Shown here in pieces: positions 7,221 to 19,964 of a stretch of 64,000 nucleotides of DNA; position 1 is the stretch's first letter; every line of letters begins with the position of its first letter. A program made the position numbers and the translations under genes. Source of the stretch: Clostridia bacterium (GTDB lineage Bacteria; Bacillota; Clostridia; Christensenellales; QALW01); the NCBI GenBank assembly GCA_017502165.1, contig JAFVVO010000012.1, forward strand, positions 6,174 through 70,173, in the 5' to 3' direction. A model generated the notes under the pieces. That model did not search any database, had not been told where the DNA came from, and saw nothing but the letters and a program-made list of their open reading frames with translations.

Positions 7221-7507
7221 TTTTTTACCACTTCCGCAGCCATTATCTGATTGTCATTTATATAACAAAATTTTCTGTTTAAAATACTAACACGCCAACA
7301 ATGCATTTGCAATATTTTTTTCTTAAAATGCAACAAAAAAGCACAAAATTGCTATGTTTACATATAAAAAAGCCCTTATTTCCTAAGGCTTACCGAAATT
7401 TAAAAAAATGTATATCGTATACATTTTAATTTTTTGTAAATTTTAATAAAAAAACTATCAAAACGCTCCTTTTGTAATATATTTTTAACAATTTTCAGCA
7501 AAAAAAG

Positions 7508-7665
7508 TTCTCCACAGCTTTTTTCCCAAAAACACTGGATTTTTTTGGTATGTTGTGGATAACTTAATTTTTCGCCAAAAAGTTATCCACAGTTAATATC
7601 CCCATTTTCCTGCACATATGTTTTTATCCACAGATAAAAGAAAAGTTATCCACAACTGTTGATAA
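7508..7665. promoter_or_regulatory. DnaA-box cluster (4 perfect and 2 one-mismatch boxes)
   Basis: Perfect TTATCCACA at 7583-7591(+), 7624-7632(+), 7646-7654(+) and 7554-7562(-). TTcTCCACA at 7508-7516(+) and TTATCaACA at 7657-7665(-). The cluster sits in a 556-bp AT-rich intergenic region. Confidence 0.7.
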
Positions 7666-12902: not shown

Positions 12903-13501
12903 TACGCTTCCTCCTTTTTAGTTAAACGGTTCTTAATAAAAAATACTATTTTCTTCGTTAAGATTACTACTCCGTCTGTTGCGGCTTTGCAACCTAAGAA
13001 TAACAATATAGACAAGCCTGCACAGACAATTCCTATGCCTAACAGTGCAATTCCTGCCATTTTATTAGGGGTAAACACAATACCCGCGCCTGCAACAATG
13101 CCGCTAAGGGCGCAACTTACAACGGAAGCAAAAACTGCCCACAAGGAAATAATAATGGACCACAAAGAAACGTAAAGAGCAAGAATTACCGCAAAAAACG
13201 CAATCGTCAAAGGTATCCATAAAGGTGCGCCTGCTATAAGCAACACAATTTCCCAAGTTTTTAAGCGTCTTTTTGTCTTTATTTTTTCTATAGCAATTTT
13301 CGTAAGGGGAATATCCTTAATAATATGTTTGGCTATCTCATCAACAGTCCCAACTGCCGCAACGGCTTCTTCTTCCGAAAGCCCGTCTTCAATACGGTCT
13401 TCAATCATTTCCGCATAAAAATTAAGTCTTTCCTCGACCTCCTGCTTAGGCAAATCGGAAAGCTTATCATTTAACGCCAAAATAAAATTAAGCTTTGTCA
13501 T
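12902..13501 (-). CDS. DUF1700 membrane protein
   Basis: 199 aa. An N-terminal cytoplasmic DUF1700-like helix bundle (LNDKLSDLPKQEVEERLNFYAEMIED) is followed by several TM helices. It overlaps both neighbours (1 nt and 4 nt). Confidence 0.65.
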   Translation of the reverse strand: MTKLNFILALNDKLSDLPKQEVEERLNFYAEMIEDRIEDGLSEEEAVAAVGTVDEIAKHIIKDIPLTKIAIEKIKTKRRLKTWEIVLLIAGAPLWIPLTIAFFAVILALYVSLWSIIISLWAVFASVVSCALSGIVAGAGIVFTPNKMAGIALLGIGIVCAGLSILLFLGCKAATDGVVILTKKIVFFIKNRLTKKEEA

Positions 13502-13812
13502 TCTTCATCCTCCTTGGTAACAAATCGGTATATGGACATAATCTCTTTCCATTCATTCTTAAACTCTTCAATACGCTTAATGCCCCGGTCGGTTATTCGG
13601 TAATACTTCCGAAGCCTTCCCCCATGCTCAACAGTTCGAACAGTAAGCATATTTGCAATTTCTAACCGCTTAAGAATCGTATACAAAGTAGATTCAGAAA
13701 GCTCGATATAGGGCTTCATATCCTTTATAATCTTATATCCGTAAGAATCTTCATTCTTAATTGCCGCCAACACGCAAACGTCTAACAGTCCACGTTTTAA
13801 CTGAATATCCAT
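13498..13812 (-). CDS. PadR family transcriptional regulator
   Basis: 104 aa with a winged-helix PadR signature (DVCVLAAIKNEDSYGYKIIKDM ... TLYTILKRLE). Confidence 0.85.
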   Translation of the reverse strand: MDIQLKRGLLDVCVLAAIKNEDSYGYKIIKDMKPYIELSESTLYTILKRLEIANMLTVRTVEHGGRLRKYYRITDRGIKRIEEFKNEWKEIMSIYRFVTKEDEE

Positions 13813-13944: not shown

Positions 13945-14447
13945 ATGAAGAAAATTATTGTTATCGGTTGCCCCGGAAGCGGCAAAAGCACCTTTGCTAA
14001 AAACTAAATAAAATCACAGGTATAGAGTTGTTTCATCTCGATTTGTTATTCTGGAACTCAGACAAAACCACCGTCGAAAAATCTGTTTTTCTTGAAAGAC
14101 TATCGAATGCACTACAAAAAAGTCAATGGATTATTGACGGTAATTACGCTTCAACCTTAGAAATGCGCCTGCAAGCCTGCGATACCGTTATTTTTTTAGA
14201 TTACGACACGCAAACCTGCCTGCAGGGAATCGTCGCCCGCCGAGGAAAACCGCGAAGTGATATGCCCTGGACTGAAACTGAACCCGACGAAGAATTTATT
14301 TCTTTTATTAAAAATTACAACAACCAAACCCGTCCCAAAGTAATTGAATTATTAGAGAAGTATTCCGATAAAAATATTTTTGTTTTTACCTCCCGAAAAG
14401 AAGAAAACGAATTTTTACTGCAAATAGATAAGAAAAAACACGGCTGA
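13945..14447 (+). pseudogene. frameshifted P-loop NTPase (adenylate-kinase-like / topology-modulation FlaR-like)
   Basis: MKKIIVIGCPGSGKSTFAKN* stops at 14005. One extra A in the A5 run 13999-14003 would give ...AKKLNKITGIELFHLDLLFW..., joining the 14028..14447 ORF. Confidence 0.7.
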
Positions 14448-14456
14448 CCGCCGTGT
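14438..14456 (+). terminator. terminator of the P-loop (pseudo)gene
   Basis: ACACGGC-TGACC-GCCGTGT followed by TTTTTG. The stop codon lies in the loop. Confidence 0.6.
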
Positions 14457-14460
14457 TTTT

Positions 14461-14745
14461 GTTGTCAAAAGTGTCGTCAAAATTAAAACCTTTTTCATAT
14501 CAAGCATACAAAAAGCGGCTTGAAATCTTGTGTTTCAAGCCACTTAAATGATGCATTATATCTTTCCCACTTTTTTCGTGATTCTTTTTTAACTTATTTA
14601 TACCCTAAACAGTATCCCAAACAGTTATTTTGAACCCTCTTTTCTGCTCAATTTTTCATTTATCAATTTTTTTGTTGCAGAAAGTGTTGCAAAATCGGTT
14701 GTGGGATGGTGCCGAGTACCTGTGAAGTTGTTATAAAAAACCGCA
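14461..14745 (-). repeat. inter-cassette repeat copy A (most diverged)
   Basis: Aligns by eye with copy B over ~285 bp: GTTGTCAAAAGTGTCGTCAA motif, hairpin 14517-14541, a relic ...TTTCCCACTTTTTTCG..., and the R2 segment. 14628-14727 versus 17421-17520 is 77/100 identical and ungapped (hand count). Confidence 0.6.
14517..14541 (-). terminator. terminator hairpin within repeat A (probable end of the ABC/LytTR operon transcript)
   Basis: GGCTTGAAA-N7-TTTCAAGCC, followed on the minus strand by GCTTTTTGT. Confidence 0.5.
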
Positions 14746-14760
14746 GGTTTATATACCGTA

Positions 14761-15216
14761 TTACCCGTTTGATAAATCTTCTTTTATGCTTTGTTGCTTT
14801 TGTTTTAGCATTTTATTGAGCTTCGCCGTATTCCTTTTGATTATGGAATATATGATTGCCCAAATCACTATATAACCCACAACAAAAATTGCCGAGAACA
14901 CCACGATCGGCAATACACCGAAATCCAACCAATCGTTAAGCAGATAGGTTCCGAGGTAGATGATATATAAAACGCCGCCGTGAACCAGAATTGCCAACAT
15001 CAAGGGCAAGCGTTCGATTTGATAAATGGCATTCATGCCGCCCGAAACAAACGCAAGTGCGGACAGCGAAAATATACCGATACATACTTGATTGACTGTC
15101 AAGGCATCTATGACGGCAGACTGCTTCAAAATCAGATACACTATTGCCAAAACAATCGGGCCAATACCGGAAGCAATCAAGCCACGGCGCAAAAATTCCA
15201 AAACAAACTTTTTCAT
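14761..15216 (-). CDS. DUF3021-type membrane protein (putative membrane partner/inhibitor of the LytTR regulator)
   Basis: 151 aa from ATG 15216, which overlaps the LytTR stop as ATGA. It has four TM helices. Confidence 0.7.
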   Translation of the reverse strand: MKKFVLEFLRRGLIASGIGPIVLAIVYLILKQSAVIDALTVNQVCIGIFSLSALAFVSGGMNAIYQIERLPLMLAILVHGGVLYIIYLGTYLLNDWLDFGVLPIVVFSAIFVVGYIVIWAIIYSIIKRNTAKLNKMLKQKQQSIKEDLSNG

Positions 15217-15656
15217 ATTCCTTCGTACCTCCTTCTGATTTCCGCAAAGCAACGTCTTGAAACGTATTCTTTATACCCGCAATAAAACACGGCATCTACA
15301 CCTCCGCTGAAAACCGCATCAAATCTCTGAATACGGTGTTCATTGGCAAGTGTTGATTTGTTGATACGAATGAAATAAGAAGGTAAAACCTCCTCCAAAT
15401 CTCGAAGTCTATCTTGAATACGGTAGCGACTGCCTTTGGTATCAATAGCAATCACTTTTCTGTCAATGATGGTAATACATTCGATTTCCGAAAACTTCAG
15501 CTTCCGCATCTCATCATCTTTGTATCCCATAATACTGTCCGCACCGGAATATCCGCAGACGAGATCTTCTATCCGCTGTGTCAAAGAGGAGGGCGCATGA
15601 ACGATTGCTATGATTTCCTCGTCTGCGTTTTTGTCGATAATAATTTTGTATTTCAT
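15213..15656 (-). CDS. stand-alone LytTR-domain DNA-binding protein (no receiver domain)
   Basis: 147 aa with a LytTR fold signature (IECITIIDRKVIAIDTKGSRYRIQDRLRDLEEVLPSYFIRINKSTLAN). Confidence 0.8.
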   Translation of the reverse strand: MKYKIIIDKNADEEIIAIVHAPSSLTQRIEDLVCGYSGADSIMGYKDDEMRKLKFSEIECITIIDRKVIAIDTKGSRYRIQDRLRDLEEVLPSYFIRINKSTLANEHRIQRFDAVFSGGVDAVFYCGYKEYVSRRCFAEIRRRYEGI

Positions 15657-15668
15657 CGCCAGGGCTCC

Positions 15669-16400
15669 TTACTGTTTTTTCATTTGCCTGAGGAAACAGA
15701 ACACGGCCGCCGCCGTTATCAGTACACTATACAGAATAATCGGCAGGATATGTGAAACTGCGCCCTCAAAATTTCCGTTAAATAACGCTTTTTCCAGTTC
15801 TGCTGCGTGAACAAACGGAAGCGCATTTGCTATTTTCTTGAAAGTGCCTCCCACAAGATTCAAATCAAACCAAACACCGGAAAACCATGCGGAAAGATTG
15901 GTAAGCAGTGCTCCGCAAATACCGCCAACCTGTTTCACTCCCAAAATACTGCCACACAAAAGTCCGAGTGCAATATTAAAAATTGCCATTGGGACAATGC
16001 CAATAATTGCATAAATAATGTTTATGCTAATCTCCAATCCCAAGGGAATCGCAAAGAAATAGCAAATCACGGTCTGCCCGATTGCGATGGGCAGAATCGG
16101 GAGCATATAGCCCATAATGAAATCAAATCCCGTAAGGGGTGTTGTGTACAATCTCTGCAAAAGGGCGCTTTCTCGGTCTTTGGCGATCAGAGTTGCTGAA
16201 AAAAGTGTCATAAACGACAATCCGAATACGGTAATACCCGGAGTAAGTGTGTTAATCTCAAACAAGTTCACCGGAATATTCGCTTGAATAGCGCTTAAAA
16301 GCACCAATAAGACCAAGGGGAATCCCAGACCGAAGCCGAGGTTGAGCGGATCTCGCAAAATCTCTTTGGCGCATCTTGCGGCAAAAGTCATCATTCTCAT
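15669..16400 (-). CDS. ABC-2 type transporter permease
   Basis: 243 aa with six TM helices and an ABC-2 family layout. Its start overlaps the ATPase stop by 1 nt. Confidence 0.8.
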   Translation of the reverse strand: MRMMTFAARCAKEILRDPLNLGFGLGFPLVLLVLLSAIQANIPVNLFEINTLTPGITVFGLSFMTLFSATLIAKDRESALLQRLYTTPLTGFDFIMGYMLPILPIAIGQTVICYFFAIPLGLEISINIIYAIIGIVPMAIFNIALGLLCGSILGVKQVGGICGALLTNLSAWFSGVWFDLNLVGGTFKKIANALPFVHAAELEKALFNGNFEGAVSHILPIILYSVLITAAAVFCFLRQMKKQ

Positions 16401-17125
16401 TACGCACCCTCCTTTACAATAGAAACGAAGGCTGTTTCAAAATCGTTTGTTCCAACCGCTGCGTTTAATTCTTCTACTGTTCCAACTGCAAGAAGTCTAC
16501 CGCTTTTCATAATGCCGATGCGGTCAGAGAGCGCTTCTGCTTCTTCCATATAATGCGTAGTCAGAATGATTGTGATCTTGCCTTTCAAAGAGCGAATCAC
16601 TTCCCAAAGATCGTGCCTTGCAAGGACATCCAAGCCCAGAGTTGGCTCGTCTAAAAAGAGAATTTTAGGTTCGCTGATCAGTGCCATAGCAATGCTGACA
16701 CGCCGCTTAAAGCCGCCGGATAATTTACCTGCTTTCCTCAAAAGAACACTGTCCAGAGAAAACTGCTTGGACAGTTCCTGTATCTTTGCTTTTGTTTTTT
16801 CTTTTGAAAAACCGTGGATACCACAGATTAACTCTAAATTTTCTTTTACGGAAAGGTTAGGTGCAATGGCGGTTTCTTGCGGAGATACGCCAATCAGCCG
16901 CTTTACTTGTTCGGGTTCCTTTGTAATGCTGTATCCGCCTACAATAGCATCTCCACTCGTAGGTTTTGTCAGGCAGGAAAGCATTTTAATAGCCGTAGTC
17001 TTTCCGGCACCGTTTACTCCAAGCAGAGAAAACAATTCACCTTGCTGAATTTCTAAACCCAGCTTGTCTACAGCAGTCAGATTCTTATACTGCTTGACAA
17101 GCTGGGTAGTCTTTATTTCTTGCAT
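16400..17125 (-). CDS. ABC transporter ATP-binding protein (DrrA/CcmA-like)
   Basis: Walker A GVNGAGKTT, signature LSGGFKRR, Walker B ILFLDEPT. I prefer ATG 17125 because it lies 9 nt after GGAGG, whereas ATG 17134 abuts the RBS. Confidence 0.9.
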   Translation of the reverse strand: MQEIKTTQLVKQYKNLTAVDKLGLEIQQGELFSLLGVNGAGKTTAIKMLSCLTKPTSGDAIVGGYSITKEPEQVKRLIGVSPQETAIAPNLSVKENLELICGIHGFSKEKTKAKIQELSKQFSLDSVLLRKAGKLSGGFKRRVSIAMALISEPKILFLDEPTLGLDVLARHDLWEVIRSLKGKITIILTTHYMEEAEALSDRIGIMKSGRLLAVGTVEELNAAVGTNDFETAFVSIVKEGA

Positions 17126-17191
17126 AAATGTCATCCTCCTTTTTCACTTGCTATATCATAATAGCATATAAAAAAGAAGAAATGTTGTTTT

Positions 17192-17219
17192 TTGTCTCTT
17201 CGGTCGCTTTTAGTGTCTC
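17192..17219 (-). promoter_or_regulatory. candidate LytTR box: direct repeats GAGACA(C/A) with a 21-bp period upstream of the ABC operon
   Basis: On the minus strand GAGACAC (17213-17219) and GAGACAA (17192-17198), with starts 21 nt apart. They lie ~30 nt upstream of an extended -10, TGCTATTAT (17158-17166). Confidence 0.3.
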
Positions 17220-17298
17220 ATCGGCAACTATCTTTTTGCAAATTTAACATTGCGCGTTGCAAAAGTGTTGCAGAAGCATTTTCCTAAATTGCATAAAT

Positions 17299-17333
17299 GC
17301 CCGAAAGCCCTATGTTTCCACGGGTTTTCGGGC
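17299..17333 (-). terminator. duplicate of the guaA terminator hairpin inside repeat B
   Basis: GCCCGAAAGCCC...GGGTTTTCGGGC, followed on the minus strand by ATTTATGCAATTT. It lies ~190 nt downstream of the GNAT-fusion stop. Confidence 0.6.
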
Positions 17334-17352
17334 ACTTGTTAGCCAGTTAGGA

Positions 17353-17397
17353 TTATTCCCACTCTTTTTCGGGAATCTTCTTTGGCGTATTTATGCC
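17353..17397 (-). pseudogene. fossil of the GMP synthase C-terminal codons
   Basis: The minus-strand frame reads GINTPKKIPEKEWE* and is preceded by an in-frame TAG. Compare the live GuaA end EGINRVLLDLTPKPVGTIEWE*. Confidence 0.6.
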
Positions 17398-17520
17398 CTA
17401 AATATTATTCTAAATGGCAATTTTGAACCCGTTTTTCTATCCATTATTTCGTTTATCAAAATTTTTGTTGCAGAAAATGTTGCAAAATTGCCTGCGAAAT
17501 GGTGTCGAGTGGTTGTGGGG

Positions 17521-18822
17521 TTACGGCTTCGCCATTCGAATAGTATGCTCGGTTTGTTCTGTTTTTACCAGCCCAAGTTTATCGCAAATATGAAGTAATT
17601 CCTTGCTTGATACAGGAACATCAGTATAAGCTTCTTTTTCACTTATTGATAGAACATACTCAAGAAGACGAGTGCCAAAACCATTACGTTGATACTGTCC
17701 TTCAATATAAAGATTATCTATGTGTCCGTTATGTACTGTAACGATTCCAACTTCTTTGCCAAAAGATATGCTATACAGTTTCCCTCCGCTTGAAACGACT
17801 TTGTTAATTCTTTCTGCAATGATATTTTCTTCCGTGATATATCTTGCCTCGTTTTCTTCTCGGGACAAACTGTAATCAAATCTTCCATAACGATTTGCAT
17901 ATCGGCAGATATGCTCAACTTGTTCGGTAGTGCCTGAAAACTCTTTGCATATAATTTGGTTTCCTATAGCAGCCACAATCTGCGAGTCGGGATTTGACCA
18001 AGGTTTATTAATTCCCCAGAAGATTGAATTGTTGGTGTTTGTATTTAAACCTGAGAGCAGATCTTTGCGATTACACATCACTTTGTAATTTCTGCGCTTG
18101 AAATAAAACATATTGCTTTCGCAGGTAAAGATGGAACTTATCTTTTGTCCTTGATGTATCAATGCGTCTTTCAACGACAGCAAATCTGCATCATTCGGAA
18201 CGGTGTCATAAATACCGTCAAACAAACGGAAACAAGCCCAATAATCCTTAACTTCCGGTACAATACATGATGTCCAACTTGCATAACAATTCACCAATTG
18301 CATCAACACATATTTCCCGTCAAAATTATGAAAATCTTCTTCAGAAATCGATTTAGATTCTTGTTCTGTATATGTTTTTCCTACTGTCTGCAACTGAACA
18401 GCAATGATATCTCCATCATCAAAAATCCGTTCCGTGTGTACATTCGGCTTGATTTTCTTCCTTGACGGCTGCGGTGATAATAGTTTTTCTTTGAACTCGG
18501 CAAGTTTCTTTTTTCGGGAATCCAAAGTTTTCTGACCGGCTTCTGCCCACAACTCCAAACCGAATCCGCTATCAATCAGTTCAATAGCTTTATTGCGTAT
18601 CGAATCTGTCAATATGCCTTTCTTCCACATAAAATCAGCGAGCGAATAAATATAGTTGCACCATTCTTCTTCGTCTGATTCATCAAACATTTCTGTCCTA
18701 ATATATTTATCAATCCGCTTTAACGCTTCTTCTACATCAAACTTGTAAAAGGCGGCTGTGTATTCAATATATAAATCTTTTGCAGTATCATTTCCTGTGA
18801 TACTGGTATTCCAAATTCCCAT
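17521..18822 (-). CDS. multidomain protein: DUF4259-like N-terminus + unknown middle + short C-terminal GNAT acetyltransferase domain
   Basis: 433 aa. The N-terminus MGIWNTSITGNDTAKDLY resembles the DUF4259 start (MGAWG..FDND.A.D). The C-terminus has GNAT motif A, QYQRNGFGTRLLEYVL. Confidence 0.6.
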   Translation of the reverse strand: MGIWNTSITGNDTAKDLYIEYTAAFYKFDVEEALKRIDKYIRTEMFDESDEEEWCNYIYSLADFMWKKGILTDSIRNKAIELIDSGFGLELWAEAGQKTLDSRKKKLAEFKEKLLSPQPSRKKIKPNVHTERIFDDGDIIAVQLQTVGKTYTEQESKSISEEDFHNFDGKYVLMQLVNCYASWTSCIVPEVKDYWACFRLFDGIYDTVPNDADLLSLKDALIHQGQKISSIFTCESNMFYFKRRNYKVMCNRKDLLSGLNTNTNNSIFWGINKPWSNPDSQIVAAIGNQIICKEFSGTTEQVEHICRYANRYGRFDYSLSREENEARYITEENIIAERINKVVSSGGKLYSISFGKEVGIVTVHNGHIDNLYIEGQYQRNGFGTRLLEYVLSISEKEAYTDVPVSSKELLHICDKLGLVKTEQTEHTIRMAKP

Positions 18823-18853
18823 ACGTTACCTCCTATTTACTTAAAAGCCACTT

Positions 18854-18993
18854 GCAACTATTCCTTTTGCAATTTTTACATTGCGTGTTGCAAAAGTGTT
18901 GCAGAAGCATTTTTATCAAAACATAAAATGCCCGAAAGCCCTGTATTTCCAAGGGTTTTCGGGCACTTGTTAGCCAATAGGTATTATTCCCAT
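18854..18993 (-). repeat. repeat copy C (R1) fused to the live guaA 3' end
   Basis: It contains the last guaA codons, the terminator hairpin and the GTTGCAAAAGTGTTGCAG motif (18887-18904), and ends just before the RBS of the GNAT-fusion gene. Confidence 0.75.
18930..18964 (-). terminator. guaA rho-independent terminator
   Basis: GCCCGAAAACCCTTGGAAATACAGGGCTTTCGGGC on the minus strand, followed by ATTTTATGTTTT. Confidence 0.7.
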
Positions 18994-19964
18994 TCAATCG
19001 TTCCAACGGGTTTAGGCGTAAGGTCTAAAAGCACACGGTTGATGCCCTCTACCTCGCTGGTAATACGGTTGGTAATGGTGTGAAGAAGCTCATAAGGAAT
19101 TTCCTCAATAGTAGCGGTCATAGCGTCGGTAGTATTGACAGCGCGGATAATTGCAGGCCAGCCTTCATAACGCTTAGAATCGCGCACGCCTACGCTCTTA
19201 AAGTCGGGAACTGCAATAAAGTACTGCCAAACCTTAGTGTTAAGACCGTTTTTGTCAAATTCTTCACGAAGAATTGCATCAGCCTCACGAAGCGCCTCAA
19301 GTCTGTCACGGGTAATTGCGCCAAGGCAACGAACGCCAAGACCGGGACCGGGGAAAGGCTGACGGTCAACCATTGAAGCAGGAAGACCTAACGCTTTACC
19401 AACTACGCGAACTTCGTCTTTATAAAGAAGCTTAACGGGTTCAACAAGCTCAAACTGCATATCTTCAGGAAGACCGCCAACGTTATGGTGAGCTTTAACA
19501 CCGTCGCTCTCTAAAATATCAGGATAAATGGTGCCTTGTGCAAGGAAAGAAATACCTTCAAGCTTGCTTGCTTCCTCATCAAACACCTTAATAAATTCGC
19601 CACCGATAATCTTGCGCTTCTTTTCGGGTTCTGCCACGTCTTTAAGAAGGTCAAGGAAACGGTCAGTAGCGTCAATATAAATAAGATTTGCGTCAAGCTG
19701 GTTTCTGAAAACCTCGATTACCTGCTCACTTTCGCCCTTACGCATAAGACCGTGGTTAACGTGAACGCATACAAGCTGTTTTCCGATTGCCTTAATAAGC
19801 AATGCCGCAACAACAGAAGAATCAACACCGCCTGAAAGAGCAAGTAAAACCTTTTTATCTCCAACCTGAGATCTGACCTCGTTAATCTGTTCATCAATAA
19901 ATTTATCGGCAAGCTCTTTTGTTGTGATTCTTACCATTTCTTCAGGGCGCCTAACCAAATCCAT
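18984..19964 (-). CDS. guaA: GMP synthase, ATP-pyrophosphatase + dimerisation domains only (GuaA subunit-B-like; no GATase domain)
   Basis: 326 aa, collinear with E. coli GuaA from about residue 200 to the end ([13 protein letters not shown]-loop, KAHHNVGGLP, PFPGPGLGVR, ...TIEWE*). It has its own RBS and promoter, and a terminator lies upstream. Confidence 0.85.
   Translation of the reverse strand: MDLVRRPEEMVRITTKELADKFIDEQINEVRSQVGDKKVLLALSGGVDSSVVAALLIKAIGKQLVCVHVNHGLMRKGESEQVIEVFRNQLDANLIYIDATDRFLDLLKDVAEPEKKRKIIGGEFIKVFDEEASKLEGISFLAQGTIYPDILESDGVKAHHNVGGLPEDMQFELVEPVKLLYKDEVRVVGKALGLPASMVDRQPFPGPGLGVRCLGAITRDRLEALREADAILREEFDKNGLNTKVWQYFIAVPDFKSVGVRDSKRYEGWPAIIRAVNTTDAMTATIEEIPYELLHTITNRITSEVEGINRVLLDLTPKPVGTIEWE

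Follow-up and report, generated by a model that had tools for sequence, protein, structure and literature searches.

Genes and repeats behind guaA

The window analysed here, a stretch of 64,000 nucleotides (64 kb) of contig JAFVVO010000012.1 from a Clostridia bacterium, carries two small gene cassettes stacked at the 3' end of guaA, each of them lying between a left arm, which we call R1, and a right arm, R2. On the minus strand, from 20 to 13.5 kb, the order is guaA, a gene for a 433-amino-acid GNAT fusion protein, an ABC/ABC-2/LytTR/DUF3021 operon, a convergent P-loop pseudogene and the PadR gene. An earlier, sequence-only reading had already described this order, from guaA to the pseudogene, and the lack of mobility genes at 13.9-19.0 kb, and it was right on both counts: Pfam searches found no integrase, relaxase or transposase domain at 13.5-20 kb (the domain scan covered the open reading frames, ORFs, at about 11-23 kb).

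Read along guaA, the layout is guaA-core-R1-GNAT-R2-core-R1-ABC operon-R2-core*-X, where core* is a degenerate core and X is the host-side flank. The target gene (18984-19964; this gene and all the cassette features that follow are on the minus strand) is a short form of guaA encoding 326 amino acids, which comprise only the ATP-pyrophosphatase and the C-terminal domain, recognised by Pfam and by an NCBIfam match to residues 190-512 of canonical GuaA. Its last three codons (EWE) and its stop form core C, GAATGGGAATAA (18984-18995), which from its sequence can be assigned as a putative live crossover site of the attL type. R1 copy C (18846-18995), the left arm of cassette 1, contains this core, a hairpin (18929-18966), a direct pair CTGCAACACTTTTGCAAC (18887-18904) and a conserved block ending in AGTTGCAAGTGGCT; it aligns with 14 other R1 copies and is 86% identical to R1 copy B. 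Cargo 1 (17521-18822) encodes the 433-amino-acid protein, in which Pfam recognised a C-terminal GNAT domain behind an N-terminal region without known domain. R2 copy B (17353-17523), the right arm of this cassette, starts with the stop codon of the cargo (TAACCCCACAACCAC), includes the direct pair TTGCAACATTTTCTGCAAC (17467-17485) and ends in core B, the 12-nucleotide GAGTGGGAATAA (17353-17364), whose sequence is the consensus core of the family. At this core R2 abuts R1 copy B (17217-17364; hairpin 17298-17335, pair 17256-17273), the left arm of cassette 2. Cargo 2 (14761-17134, identified by Pfam) is an operon of four genes, encoding an ABC ATPase (16400-17134), an ABC-2 permease (15669-16400), a LytTR DNA-binding protein (15213-15656) and a DUF3021 membrane protein (14761-15219). 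It is followed by its right arm, R2 copy A (14561-14732), which is 78% identical to R2 copy B, carries the pair TTGCAACACTTTCTGCAAC (14674-14692) and ends in the degenerate core AAGTGGGAAAGA (14561-14572). The two units measure 1.6 and 2.8 kb. GC content did not separate the cassettes from their flanks, a tRNA scan of the region was negative, the scan for sigma-70-like promoters gave none in R1 at its threshold, and PADLOC matched none of the window's cargo proteins to a defence family.

When the three intergenic stretches were compared with the whole window by BLASTN, two kinds of repeat were observed: R1 (about 150 nucleotides) at C and B, and R2 (about 170 nucleotides) at B and A. The R1 copies (17224-17364 and 18854-18995) are 86% identical over 143 bp (E 6e-41) and the R2 copies (14564-14717 and 17356-17510) are 78% identical over 155 bp (E 1e-30), and no further copy of either was found in the 64 kb. 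The likeness between B and C noticed in the sequence-only reading is therefore real, but the single decaying repeat unit that it described is in fact two distinct ones. Similarly, its alignment of A with B over about 285 bp stands for the R2 part, while the left 100 nucleotides or so of A (14461-14560) have no significant match to R1. It had also placed TTATTCCCA, the hairpin and GTTGCAAAAGTGTTGCAG in both B and C, where we found them, and the comparison of the repeat copies that it recommended gave two significant repeats without any generic spread in the window.

This last result bears on the possibility that the repeats are a generic intergenic sequence, of the repetitive extragenic palindrome (REP) or miniature inverted-repeat transposable element (MITE) kind, or else a cis-regulatory or terminator module, which was duplicated locally and involves no mobility. 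The strong terminator-like hairpin of R1 would fit such a module, and so would a fragment of the R2 pair motif (TTTGCAACTTTTTCTGCAACAAAATTTTGGATAAAT) located in a metagenome contig (L090, R2-oriented copy, 1488-1531) directly upstream of an unrelated 468-amino-acid gene, with no core nearby. However, no other copies are present in the 64 kb, the ends of the units are direct repeats of the core with no terminal inverted repeats, the region has no match in Rfam, and nearly all copies elsewhere form part of an R1-cargo-R2 unit that adjoins a core. We regard this explanation as largely refuted, and give it hardly any weight.

Core, arms and host-side flank

The boundaries of both arms could be established by aligning 15 copies of R1 and 22 copies of R2. 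Conservation of R1 sets in sharply at the core, continues for about 150 nucleotides through the hairpin, the pair and the terminal block, and stops 20-30 nucleotides before the start of the cargo. Conservation of R2 begins at the cargo stop codon or a few nucleotides later, TAA often being the first three bases of TAACCCCACAACC, and ends sharply at the core. The R2 pair lies about 105 nucleotides upstream of the core, and both the R1 and the R2 pairs follow the pattern GCAAC-N6-GCAAC, with a period of 11 nucleotides. Although the search pattern did not include the R1 pair, this pair hardly varies, not even among the most diverged copies; together with the hairpin it is nearly unchanged in copies with an overall identity of only 54-58%. 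The hairpins of the two R1 copies have folding energies of -29 and -31 kcal/mol (z about -4.4), that of copy C being -28.9 kcal/mol (z -4.5). Among the R2 sequences, copy B has a mean identity of 80% to the other members of the family and copy A of 71%, the latter being the most diverged full-length R2 that is paired with a standard R1. Each cassette is bounded by direct repeats of the core (18984-18995, 17353-17364 and, in degenerate form, 14561-14572), as is expected at the boundaries of a cis-mobilisable element (CIME).

The sequence-only reading had seen in every repeat a displaced and decaying guaA terminus followed by the guaA terminator. The alignments point instead to an R1 hairpin that travels with the element, and to a junction B that is an element-borne, attP-like R2-core-R1 sequence, conserved across hosts, of which only 12 nucleotides are derived from guaA. 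The coding relic proposed for B (GINTPKKIPEKEWE) is readable, but it is no better than shuffled sequence once the core is excluded: when the 90 nucleotides upstream of the cores were aligned locally with guaA, with the core left out, 374 of 2000 dinucleotide shuffles scored at least as well in the case of B, and 824 of 2000 in the case of A. Moreover, more than 20 loci of other organisms have this stretch as the conserved 3' end of their R2. On these two grounds we rejected the idea of a fossil guaA coding end, and consider the stretch as sequence of the element and not as a decaying copy of guaA. Of the proposed gradient from C through B to A, the lower end can be maintained, given that the core of A is degenerate and its R2 the most diverged; nevertheless, the gradient does not date the insertions, because the B repeat is an attP-like junction carried by the element and not a worn guaA end.

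The host-side flank X (14461-14560) contains a hairpin (14513-14545) and a pair-like sequence, TGACGACACTTTTGACAAC (14461-14479). The hairpin was terminator-like in the terminator scan and folds at -24 kcal/mol, and its stem is identical to that of the guaA terminator of a related species with an empty site (L072), in which guaA is directly followed by the PadR promoter. X is therefore the displaced native terminator of guaA.

Beyond X, the PadR gene (13498-13812, minus strand) is the first of a conserved right-flank operon, PadR/HAAS/DUF4097, which comes directly after guaA in the empty-site relative. The P-loop pseudogene ('DNA topology modulation protein'; 13946-14447, plus strand) is outside the cassettes, with the old guaA terminator on one side and the PadR promoter on the other, and has a terminator of its own (14434-14460). 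It is broken by a premature TAA at about position 14006, is present in the same truncated form in a second strain (L111) and is absent from the empty-site relative. Three independent Logan contigs (L112, L113 and L114) stop at the same base, 13828, 16 nucleotides upstream of the PadR start codon, a sign that the sequence before PadR may be heterogeneous in the samples concerned. The remaining ORFs of the window, about 36, are housekeeping-like as judged by eye.

Cassettes and integrases at guaA in other genomes

To place these cassettes we considered the guaA genes of 80 GTDB species representatives, Oscillospiraceae/Acutalibacteraceae-like metagenome-assembled genomes (MAGs) of the ruminant and human gut, with 85-92% amino acid identity. 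About a quarter of these related species carry some element at the guaA site. Contigs also tend to end there: 23 end within 1 kb after guaA, compared with 6 that end within 1 kb before it (p 0.002). In six of them (L003, L017, L024, L033, L044 and L053) self-comparison showed the guaA end and terminator to be repeated 0.6-8 kb further downstream, and in the two with clear alignments (L003 and L017) the similarity starts exactly at GAGTGGGAATAA. Another four (L028, L040, L043 and L061) have more exact cores downstream of guaA with an R2-like architecture upstream of them, and in one (L062) an unrelated ORF of 232 amino acids lies between R1- and R2-like arms as a single cassette. The core itself matches the published att site of guaA-specific elements, since Tn6647 and the Tn5801-type elements use the 11-bp GAGTGGGAATA at the 3' end of guaA, and attL/attR of GIflu-1 are GAGTGGGAATAAT. 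With related integrases also present at guaA in these relatives, the proposal that this 3' end is a hot spot of site-specific integration is well founded.

Some other features of these loci deserve mention. All 80 species have the short guaA of the window (the ATP-pyrophosphatase/dimerisation half, 326 amino acids). In the window rhaM lies upstream and the glutamine amidotransferase half is not adjacent, so that GMP synthase appears to be split in this clade. In five species (L033, L035, L055, L072 and L082) GuaA ends in EFE (GAATTYGAATAA) instead of EWE, and none of the five has a 7-mer pair or integrase behind guaA, compared with about 15 of 64; such a core might protect the site, the numbers being too small to test. 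A 7.7-kb island bounded by exact cores (L003, 10966-18663) has no integrase and encodes a Mob_Pre relaxase, a helix-turn-helix (HTH) regulator, an HNH/DGQHR protein and an OLD/GajA-like ATPase-nuclease; it belongs to this site family as a larger element that lacks an integrase but, by its content, is mobilisable. Another locus (L078, 6830-7010) has three direct copies of ATCCTTGCCAA, some 60-70 nucleotides apart, between a small inserted ORF and the PadR promoter.

A scan of metagenome contigs for one exact R2 motif gave 25 stretches. Of these, 18 proved to be true copies of R2 (nhmmer E 1e-25 to 1e-46), and for most of them an R1 is present 0.6-1.5 kb upstream; look-ups of GNAT homologues added more loci, reaching more than 20 metagenome or MAG loci overall. 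Between the same arms there are at least 13 different cargos, all co-oriented with guaA and most of them single ORFs: the GNAT fusion, the ABC/LytTR operon, T5orf172, a SAP-domain protein, a BspA-type leucine-rich repeat protein, DUF4236, DUF4304, an HTH_3 protein, ORFs of 98, 202, 232 and 317 amino acids, and a pair of 344 and 151 amino acids. Outside the cores we observed guaA genes of different lineages, ORFs other than guaA with a core-like end, arms of other element types and host terminators. The distant guaA lineages share 51-54% amino acid identity with that of the window (51% for the full-length 508-amino-acid guaA of L104), and the ORFs other than guaA end in KEWE (L096) or in AAATGGGAATGA (L106), the latter being a secondary site that received an R1-GNAT-R2 unit. 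The T5orf172 cassette, with arms 98-100% identical, was found in at least four contexts; it follows a distant full-length guaA, neighbours different elements and also adjoins another cassette. In L097 two different cassettes meet at an R2-core-R1 junction, as at B in the window. The stacking of integrase-less cassettes by serial integration, in a frame of CIME-type or integron-like accretion, had been suggested by the sequence-only reading and finds support in these same arms bounding other cargos in many genomes.

The GNAT cargo is flanked by R1 and R2 in L106, L119-L123 and L124-L131. Its homologues form 559 clusters, many of them on contigs of cassette size; in many of clusters P0001-P0120 the longest contig reaches no more than 1.4-2.6 kb, roughly the length of one cassette, as would be expected if assemblies break at the arms or, possibly, if cassettes exist as free circles. 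A 65%-identical homologue (L135-L142; L135 9001-10305) lies without R1, R2 or core in a conserved chromosomal context, with an ArsC-like gene upstream and a cation-efflux gene downstream, which suggests a possible source of the cargo.

Arms of 150-170 nucleotides with 75-100% identity would be long enough for homologous recombination, and this could make R1 and R2 mere homology arms, between which cargo is swapped by a RecA-dependent or Campbell-type event without any site-specific recombinase. A single crossover can yield tandem direct repeats, and some copies are indeed fused at arm motifs: in L132 the GNAT gene is preceded by the second half of R1, to which a right arm of the TGGCAAC type is joined, and L061 contains an R1/R2 fusion without cargo. 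On the other hand, the homology stops abruptly at a 12-nucleotide core that is a documented integrase att site, insertions are found after guaA genes and further ORFs whose only sequence in common with the element is the core, and integrases of the matching family are present at the same site. We consider homologous recombination a very improbable origin for the array, and site-specific integration the better account of the same boundaries.

Fusions of this kind show that accretion followed by deletion, as described for streptococcal elements (PMC5704250, PMC5357655), operates here as well. L124 is a further case, in which R1-GNAT, with the beginning of R2, has been joined to a 3' integrase fragment and a right arm of the TGATAC type. 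This process can move cargo between arms, and the uniform boundaries of the cargos are not obviously explained by it. Metabolic operons are carried in the guaA island too: behind guaA, L132 (1-10400) contains a perfect R1-DUF4304-R2 cassette, a TnpV gene, a complete pst/phoU/phoBR phosphate-uptake operon and a decayed GNAT cassette.

As regards the recombinase, the left neighbour of the cassette in L095 is a mobilisable element with a tyrosine integrase, an AAA_25 protein and a Mob_Pre relaxase. This integrase has Arm-DNA-bind_4, SAM-like and catalytic domains and gives weak matches to solved chains of Tn1549 Int; phmmer detected its relatives just after guaA in seven species (L006, L008, L012, L021, L042, L047 and L066) and none in the window. 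Another integrase element lies to the left of the GNAT cassette in L119, so that cassettes and integrase elements occur in tandem in both loci. Following the cassette of L095 (an R2-oriented copy) there is also a 260-bp near-perfect palindrome (7379-7638, 88%) with the core GAGTGGGAATAA inverted at both ends; either a head-to-head junction or an error of assembly could have produced it.

Downstream of the guaA stop and the hairpin, the elements have a direct pair of 7-mers with an exact period of 11 nucleotides. A perfect pair was found at +25 to +170 nucleotides in 15 of 69 relatives, against none in 161 control windows. The pairs are of the types TGGCAAC, TGATAC, CGTACCA, TGACAGC, AGTACAC and TGCAAC, and for CGTACCA, TGATAC, TGGCAAC and TGCAAC the same type was observed on left and right arms. 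The integrases linked to one pair type share N-terminal signatures, which is suggestive of a covariation between N-domain and arm, as compared by eye in few sequences and confounded by phylogeny. The TGCAAC pairs of the cassettes share GCAAC-N6-GCAAC with TGGCAAC, the commonest type, and arms of the TGGCAAC type are the usual right-hand neighbour of cassettes (L084, L094, L095, L097, L098, L100 and L132). The 7-mer pairs may thus be arm-type integrase binding sites, and the TGGCAAC-type integrase the most likely helper of the cassettes.

A probable tandem of minimal elements and its relation to known systems

We conclude that the integrase-less tandem and its repeats are real, and that their reading as accretion at a hot spot is supported. 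The locus probably consists of two minimal, integrase-less integrative elements in tandem, which site-specific recombination has placed at the att site of the guaA 3' end; the layout, with core, R1, cargo and R2 twice in succession, is what leads us to two elements with a shared attP after serial integration. Each cassette would consist of cargo between R1 and R2, and a circular cassette would carry a single attP of about 310 nucleotides, R2-core-R1, equal to junction B. Integration into attB (guaA, core and the native terminator X) and then a second integration into one of the resulting cores would give the order C, B, A, with strand exchange occurring within the 12-nucleotide core. Catalysis would be provided by a heterobivalent tyrosine integrase (with Arm-DNA-binding, SAM-like and catalytic domains) from a co-resident, guaA-specific mobilisable element; this integrase would work in trans or, once accretion had produced a composite, in cis, with the 7-mer pairs as its arm-type sites, and the TGGCAAC-arm lineage is the best candidate. 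Mobilisation by such a borrowed integrase is likely but unproven. The GNAT cassette still has two good cores and could excise, and the ABC/LytTR cassette, whose distal core is degenerate, is probably fixed.

Several observations weigh against this interpretation. The second strain, 98.7% identical over 14 kb, has the same array. The sequence-only reading had looked to presence/absence differences among relatives, and had named as adverse the outcome that was found here, both cassettes with the same junctions; the evidence for mobility therefore comes from other species and not from polymorphism at this locus. Look-ups of the exact guaA, PadR, GNAT and LytTR proteins returned only the same array or fragmented contigs, so that this one other strain gave no presence/absence, circle or empty-site evidence within the species. 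The arm architecture of hairpin and 7-mer pair is that of the integrase-bearing elements at guaA, but none of these has TGCAAC arms: no integrase with such arms was found in the fetched loci, plasmids, phages or IMG/VR. In particular, a phmmer search with the L095 integrase against all fetched loci retrieved only other arm types, BLAST of the B junction against plasmids and phages gave nothing, and the R1 and R2 patterns gave chance matches only, or nothing, in IMG/VR. The arm-site function and its covariation with integrases come from a handful of sequences, confounded by phylogeny. The varying neighbours could partly be other elements that inserted beside static cassettes, and several copies (L124, L132 and L061) are visibly decaying or fused by deletion, so that many members are remnants.

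These same facts could be taken to mean that the cassettes are inert fossils, decayed remnants of larger integrase-bearing elements that have become fixed and whose arms resemble each other by recent common ancestry. The identical array of the second strain, the degenerate core and diverged R2 of copy A, the fusions with integrase fragments or foreign arms (L124, L132) and the missing cognate integrase all agree with it. Nevertheless, had the units decayed independently, at least 13 unrelated cargos would not share their R1 and R2 boundaries, nor would R2 begin at the stop codon in them; an R1 pair and hairpin that stay nearly invariant in copies with an overall identity of 54-58% are not accounted for either. 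A nearly identical T5orf172 cassette in its several contexts and the R1-GNAT-R2 unit at a secondary site other than guaA (L106) also speak against it. We therefore hold this alternative to be unlikely, and return to a tandem of integrated elements as the preferred explanation.

A bolder version of the latter may be put forward tentatively. The cassettes could form a genuine integron-like system based on a heterobivalent tyrosine integrase, in which an attP of about 310 nucleotides is joined to one gene or operon, with the right arm beginning at the stop codon; a regular process would load new ORFs, and throughout the gut Clostridia the integrases of co-resident mobilisable elements, acting in trans, would actively capture cassettes, stack them behind guaA and exchange them there. 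We give this possibility clearly less credit than the tandem itself. If cassettes are mobilised in trans, the Clostridia of gut and rumen would have a cheap route for single accessory genes, riding on some 310 nucleotides of att DNA and borrowing the integrase of guaA-specific mobilisable elements. The distinction of decayed CIMEs from integron cassettes would then become less clear, and the frequent breaks of assemblies just after guaA would have an explanation. For annotators, the core, the hairpin and the 7-mer pair with its 11-nucleotide period make up a DNA signature with which hidden cargo can be found, and the typed pairs together with the matching integrase lineages offer a natural system for the evolution of arm-site specificity in Tn916-like integrases.

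Among known systems, the closest are the CIMEs related to ICESt1 and ICESt3 of Streptococcus thermophilus (Pavlovic 2004; Bellanger 2011; PMC5704250, PMC5357655), which likewise lack an integrase, are bounded by attL and attR and lie at the 3' end of a housekeeping gene. Tandem stacking by integration into a resident att, chimeric internal att junctions and shuffling by accretion and deletion (here in L124 and L132) are further likenesses, and genes for own integration, excision or transfer are absent from the window's cassettes (Pfam on the ORFs at 12.9-20.4 kb, and phmmer for integrases). The CIMEs described so far, however, are individual decay products of a known parent, an integrative and conjugative element (ICE) or an integrative and mobilisable element (IME), whereas the family of the window shares one attP of about 310 nucleotides with no same-arm parent known, and its cargo is one gene or operon, at least 13 of them swapped at fixed boundaries.

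Tn5801 and Tn6647, ICEs of the Tn916 superfamily, as well as GIsul2, ATE-1 and GIflu-1, use the same target gene and the same core, GAGTGGGAATA(A/AT), and the integrases found at guaA in relatives have the Arm-binding, SAM-like and catalytic architecture of Tn916-type integrases. In contrast to the Tn5801/Tn6647-type elements, the window units have no integrase, excisionase, relaxase or conjugation genes in their 1.6 and 2.8 kb. Integron arrays are also similar in some aspects: they consist of small, co-oriented, mostly single-ORF units with one recombination site that begins at the ORF stop codon, circularisable in principle and not encoding the integrase themselves. They differ in that the window has no intI/attI/Pc platform, guaA heading the array with no integrase domain nearby; that the site is an attP-type R2-core-R1 with direct core repeats, and not a folded single-stranded attC (palindrome of 57-141 nucleotides); and that the array sits at the 3' end of a protein gene, each unit opening with a terminator-like hairpin. 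The pdif (XerC/D) modules of Acinetobacter plasmids and the integrative mobile elements exploiting Xer (IMEX) are recombinase-less cargo or elements served in trans by a tyrosine recombinase. They use host Xer recombinases and 28-bp dif-like sites, while the likely helper of the cassettes would be the integrase of a mobile element, acting on long att sites that contain arms. MITEs and REP sequences are different again, since the cassettes have only three guaA-linked repeat copies in the 64 kb and no terminal inverted repeats.

Finally, the Tycheposon islands of Prochlorococcus (bioRxiv 10.1101/2020.12.28.424599) show repeated integration beside one conserved gene, with older material pushed outward, and partial copies of the target and degenerate elements left behind as a variable island is built. 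Those elements target tRNA genes and encode their own integrase, and a uniform family of cassettes with cargo only was not described there. We would class what is reported here as a new, integron-like form of the known phenomenon of CIMEs and their accretion, a widespread gut-Clostridia family of minimal attP-plus-cargo cassettes at the guaA core.

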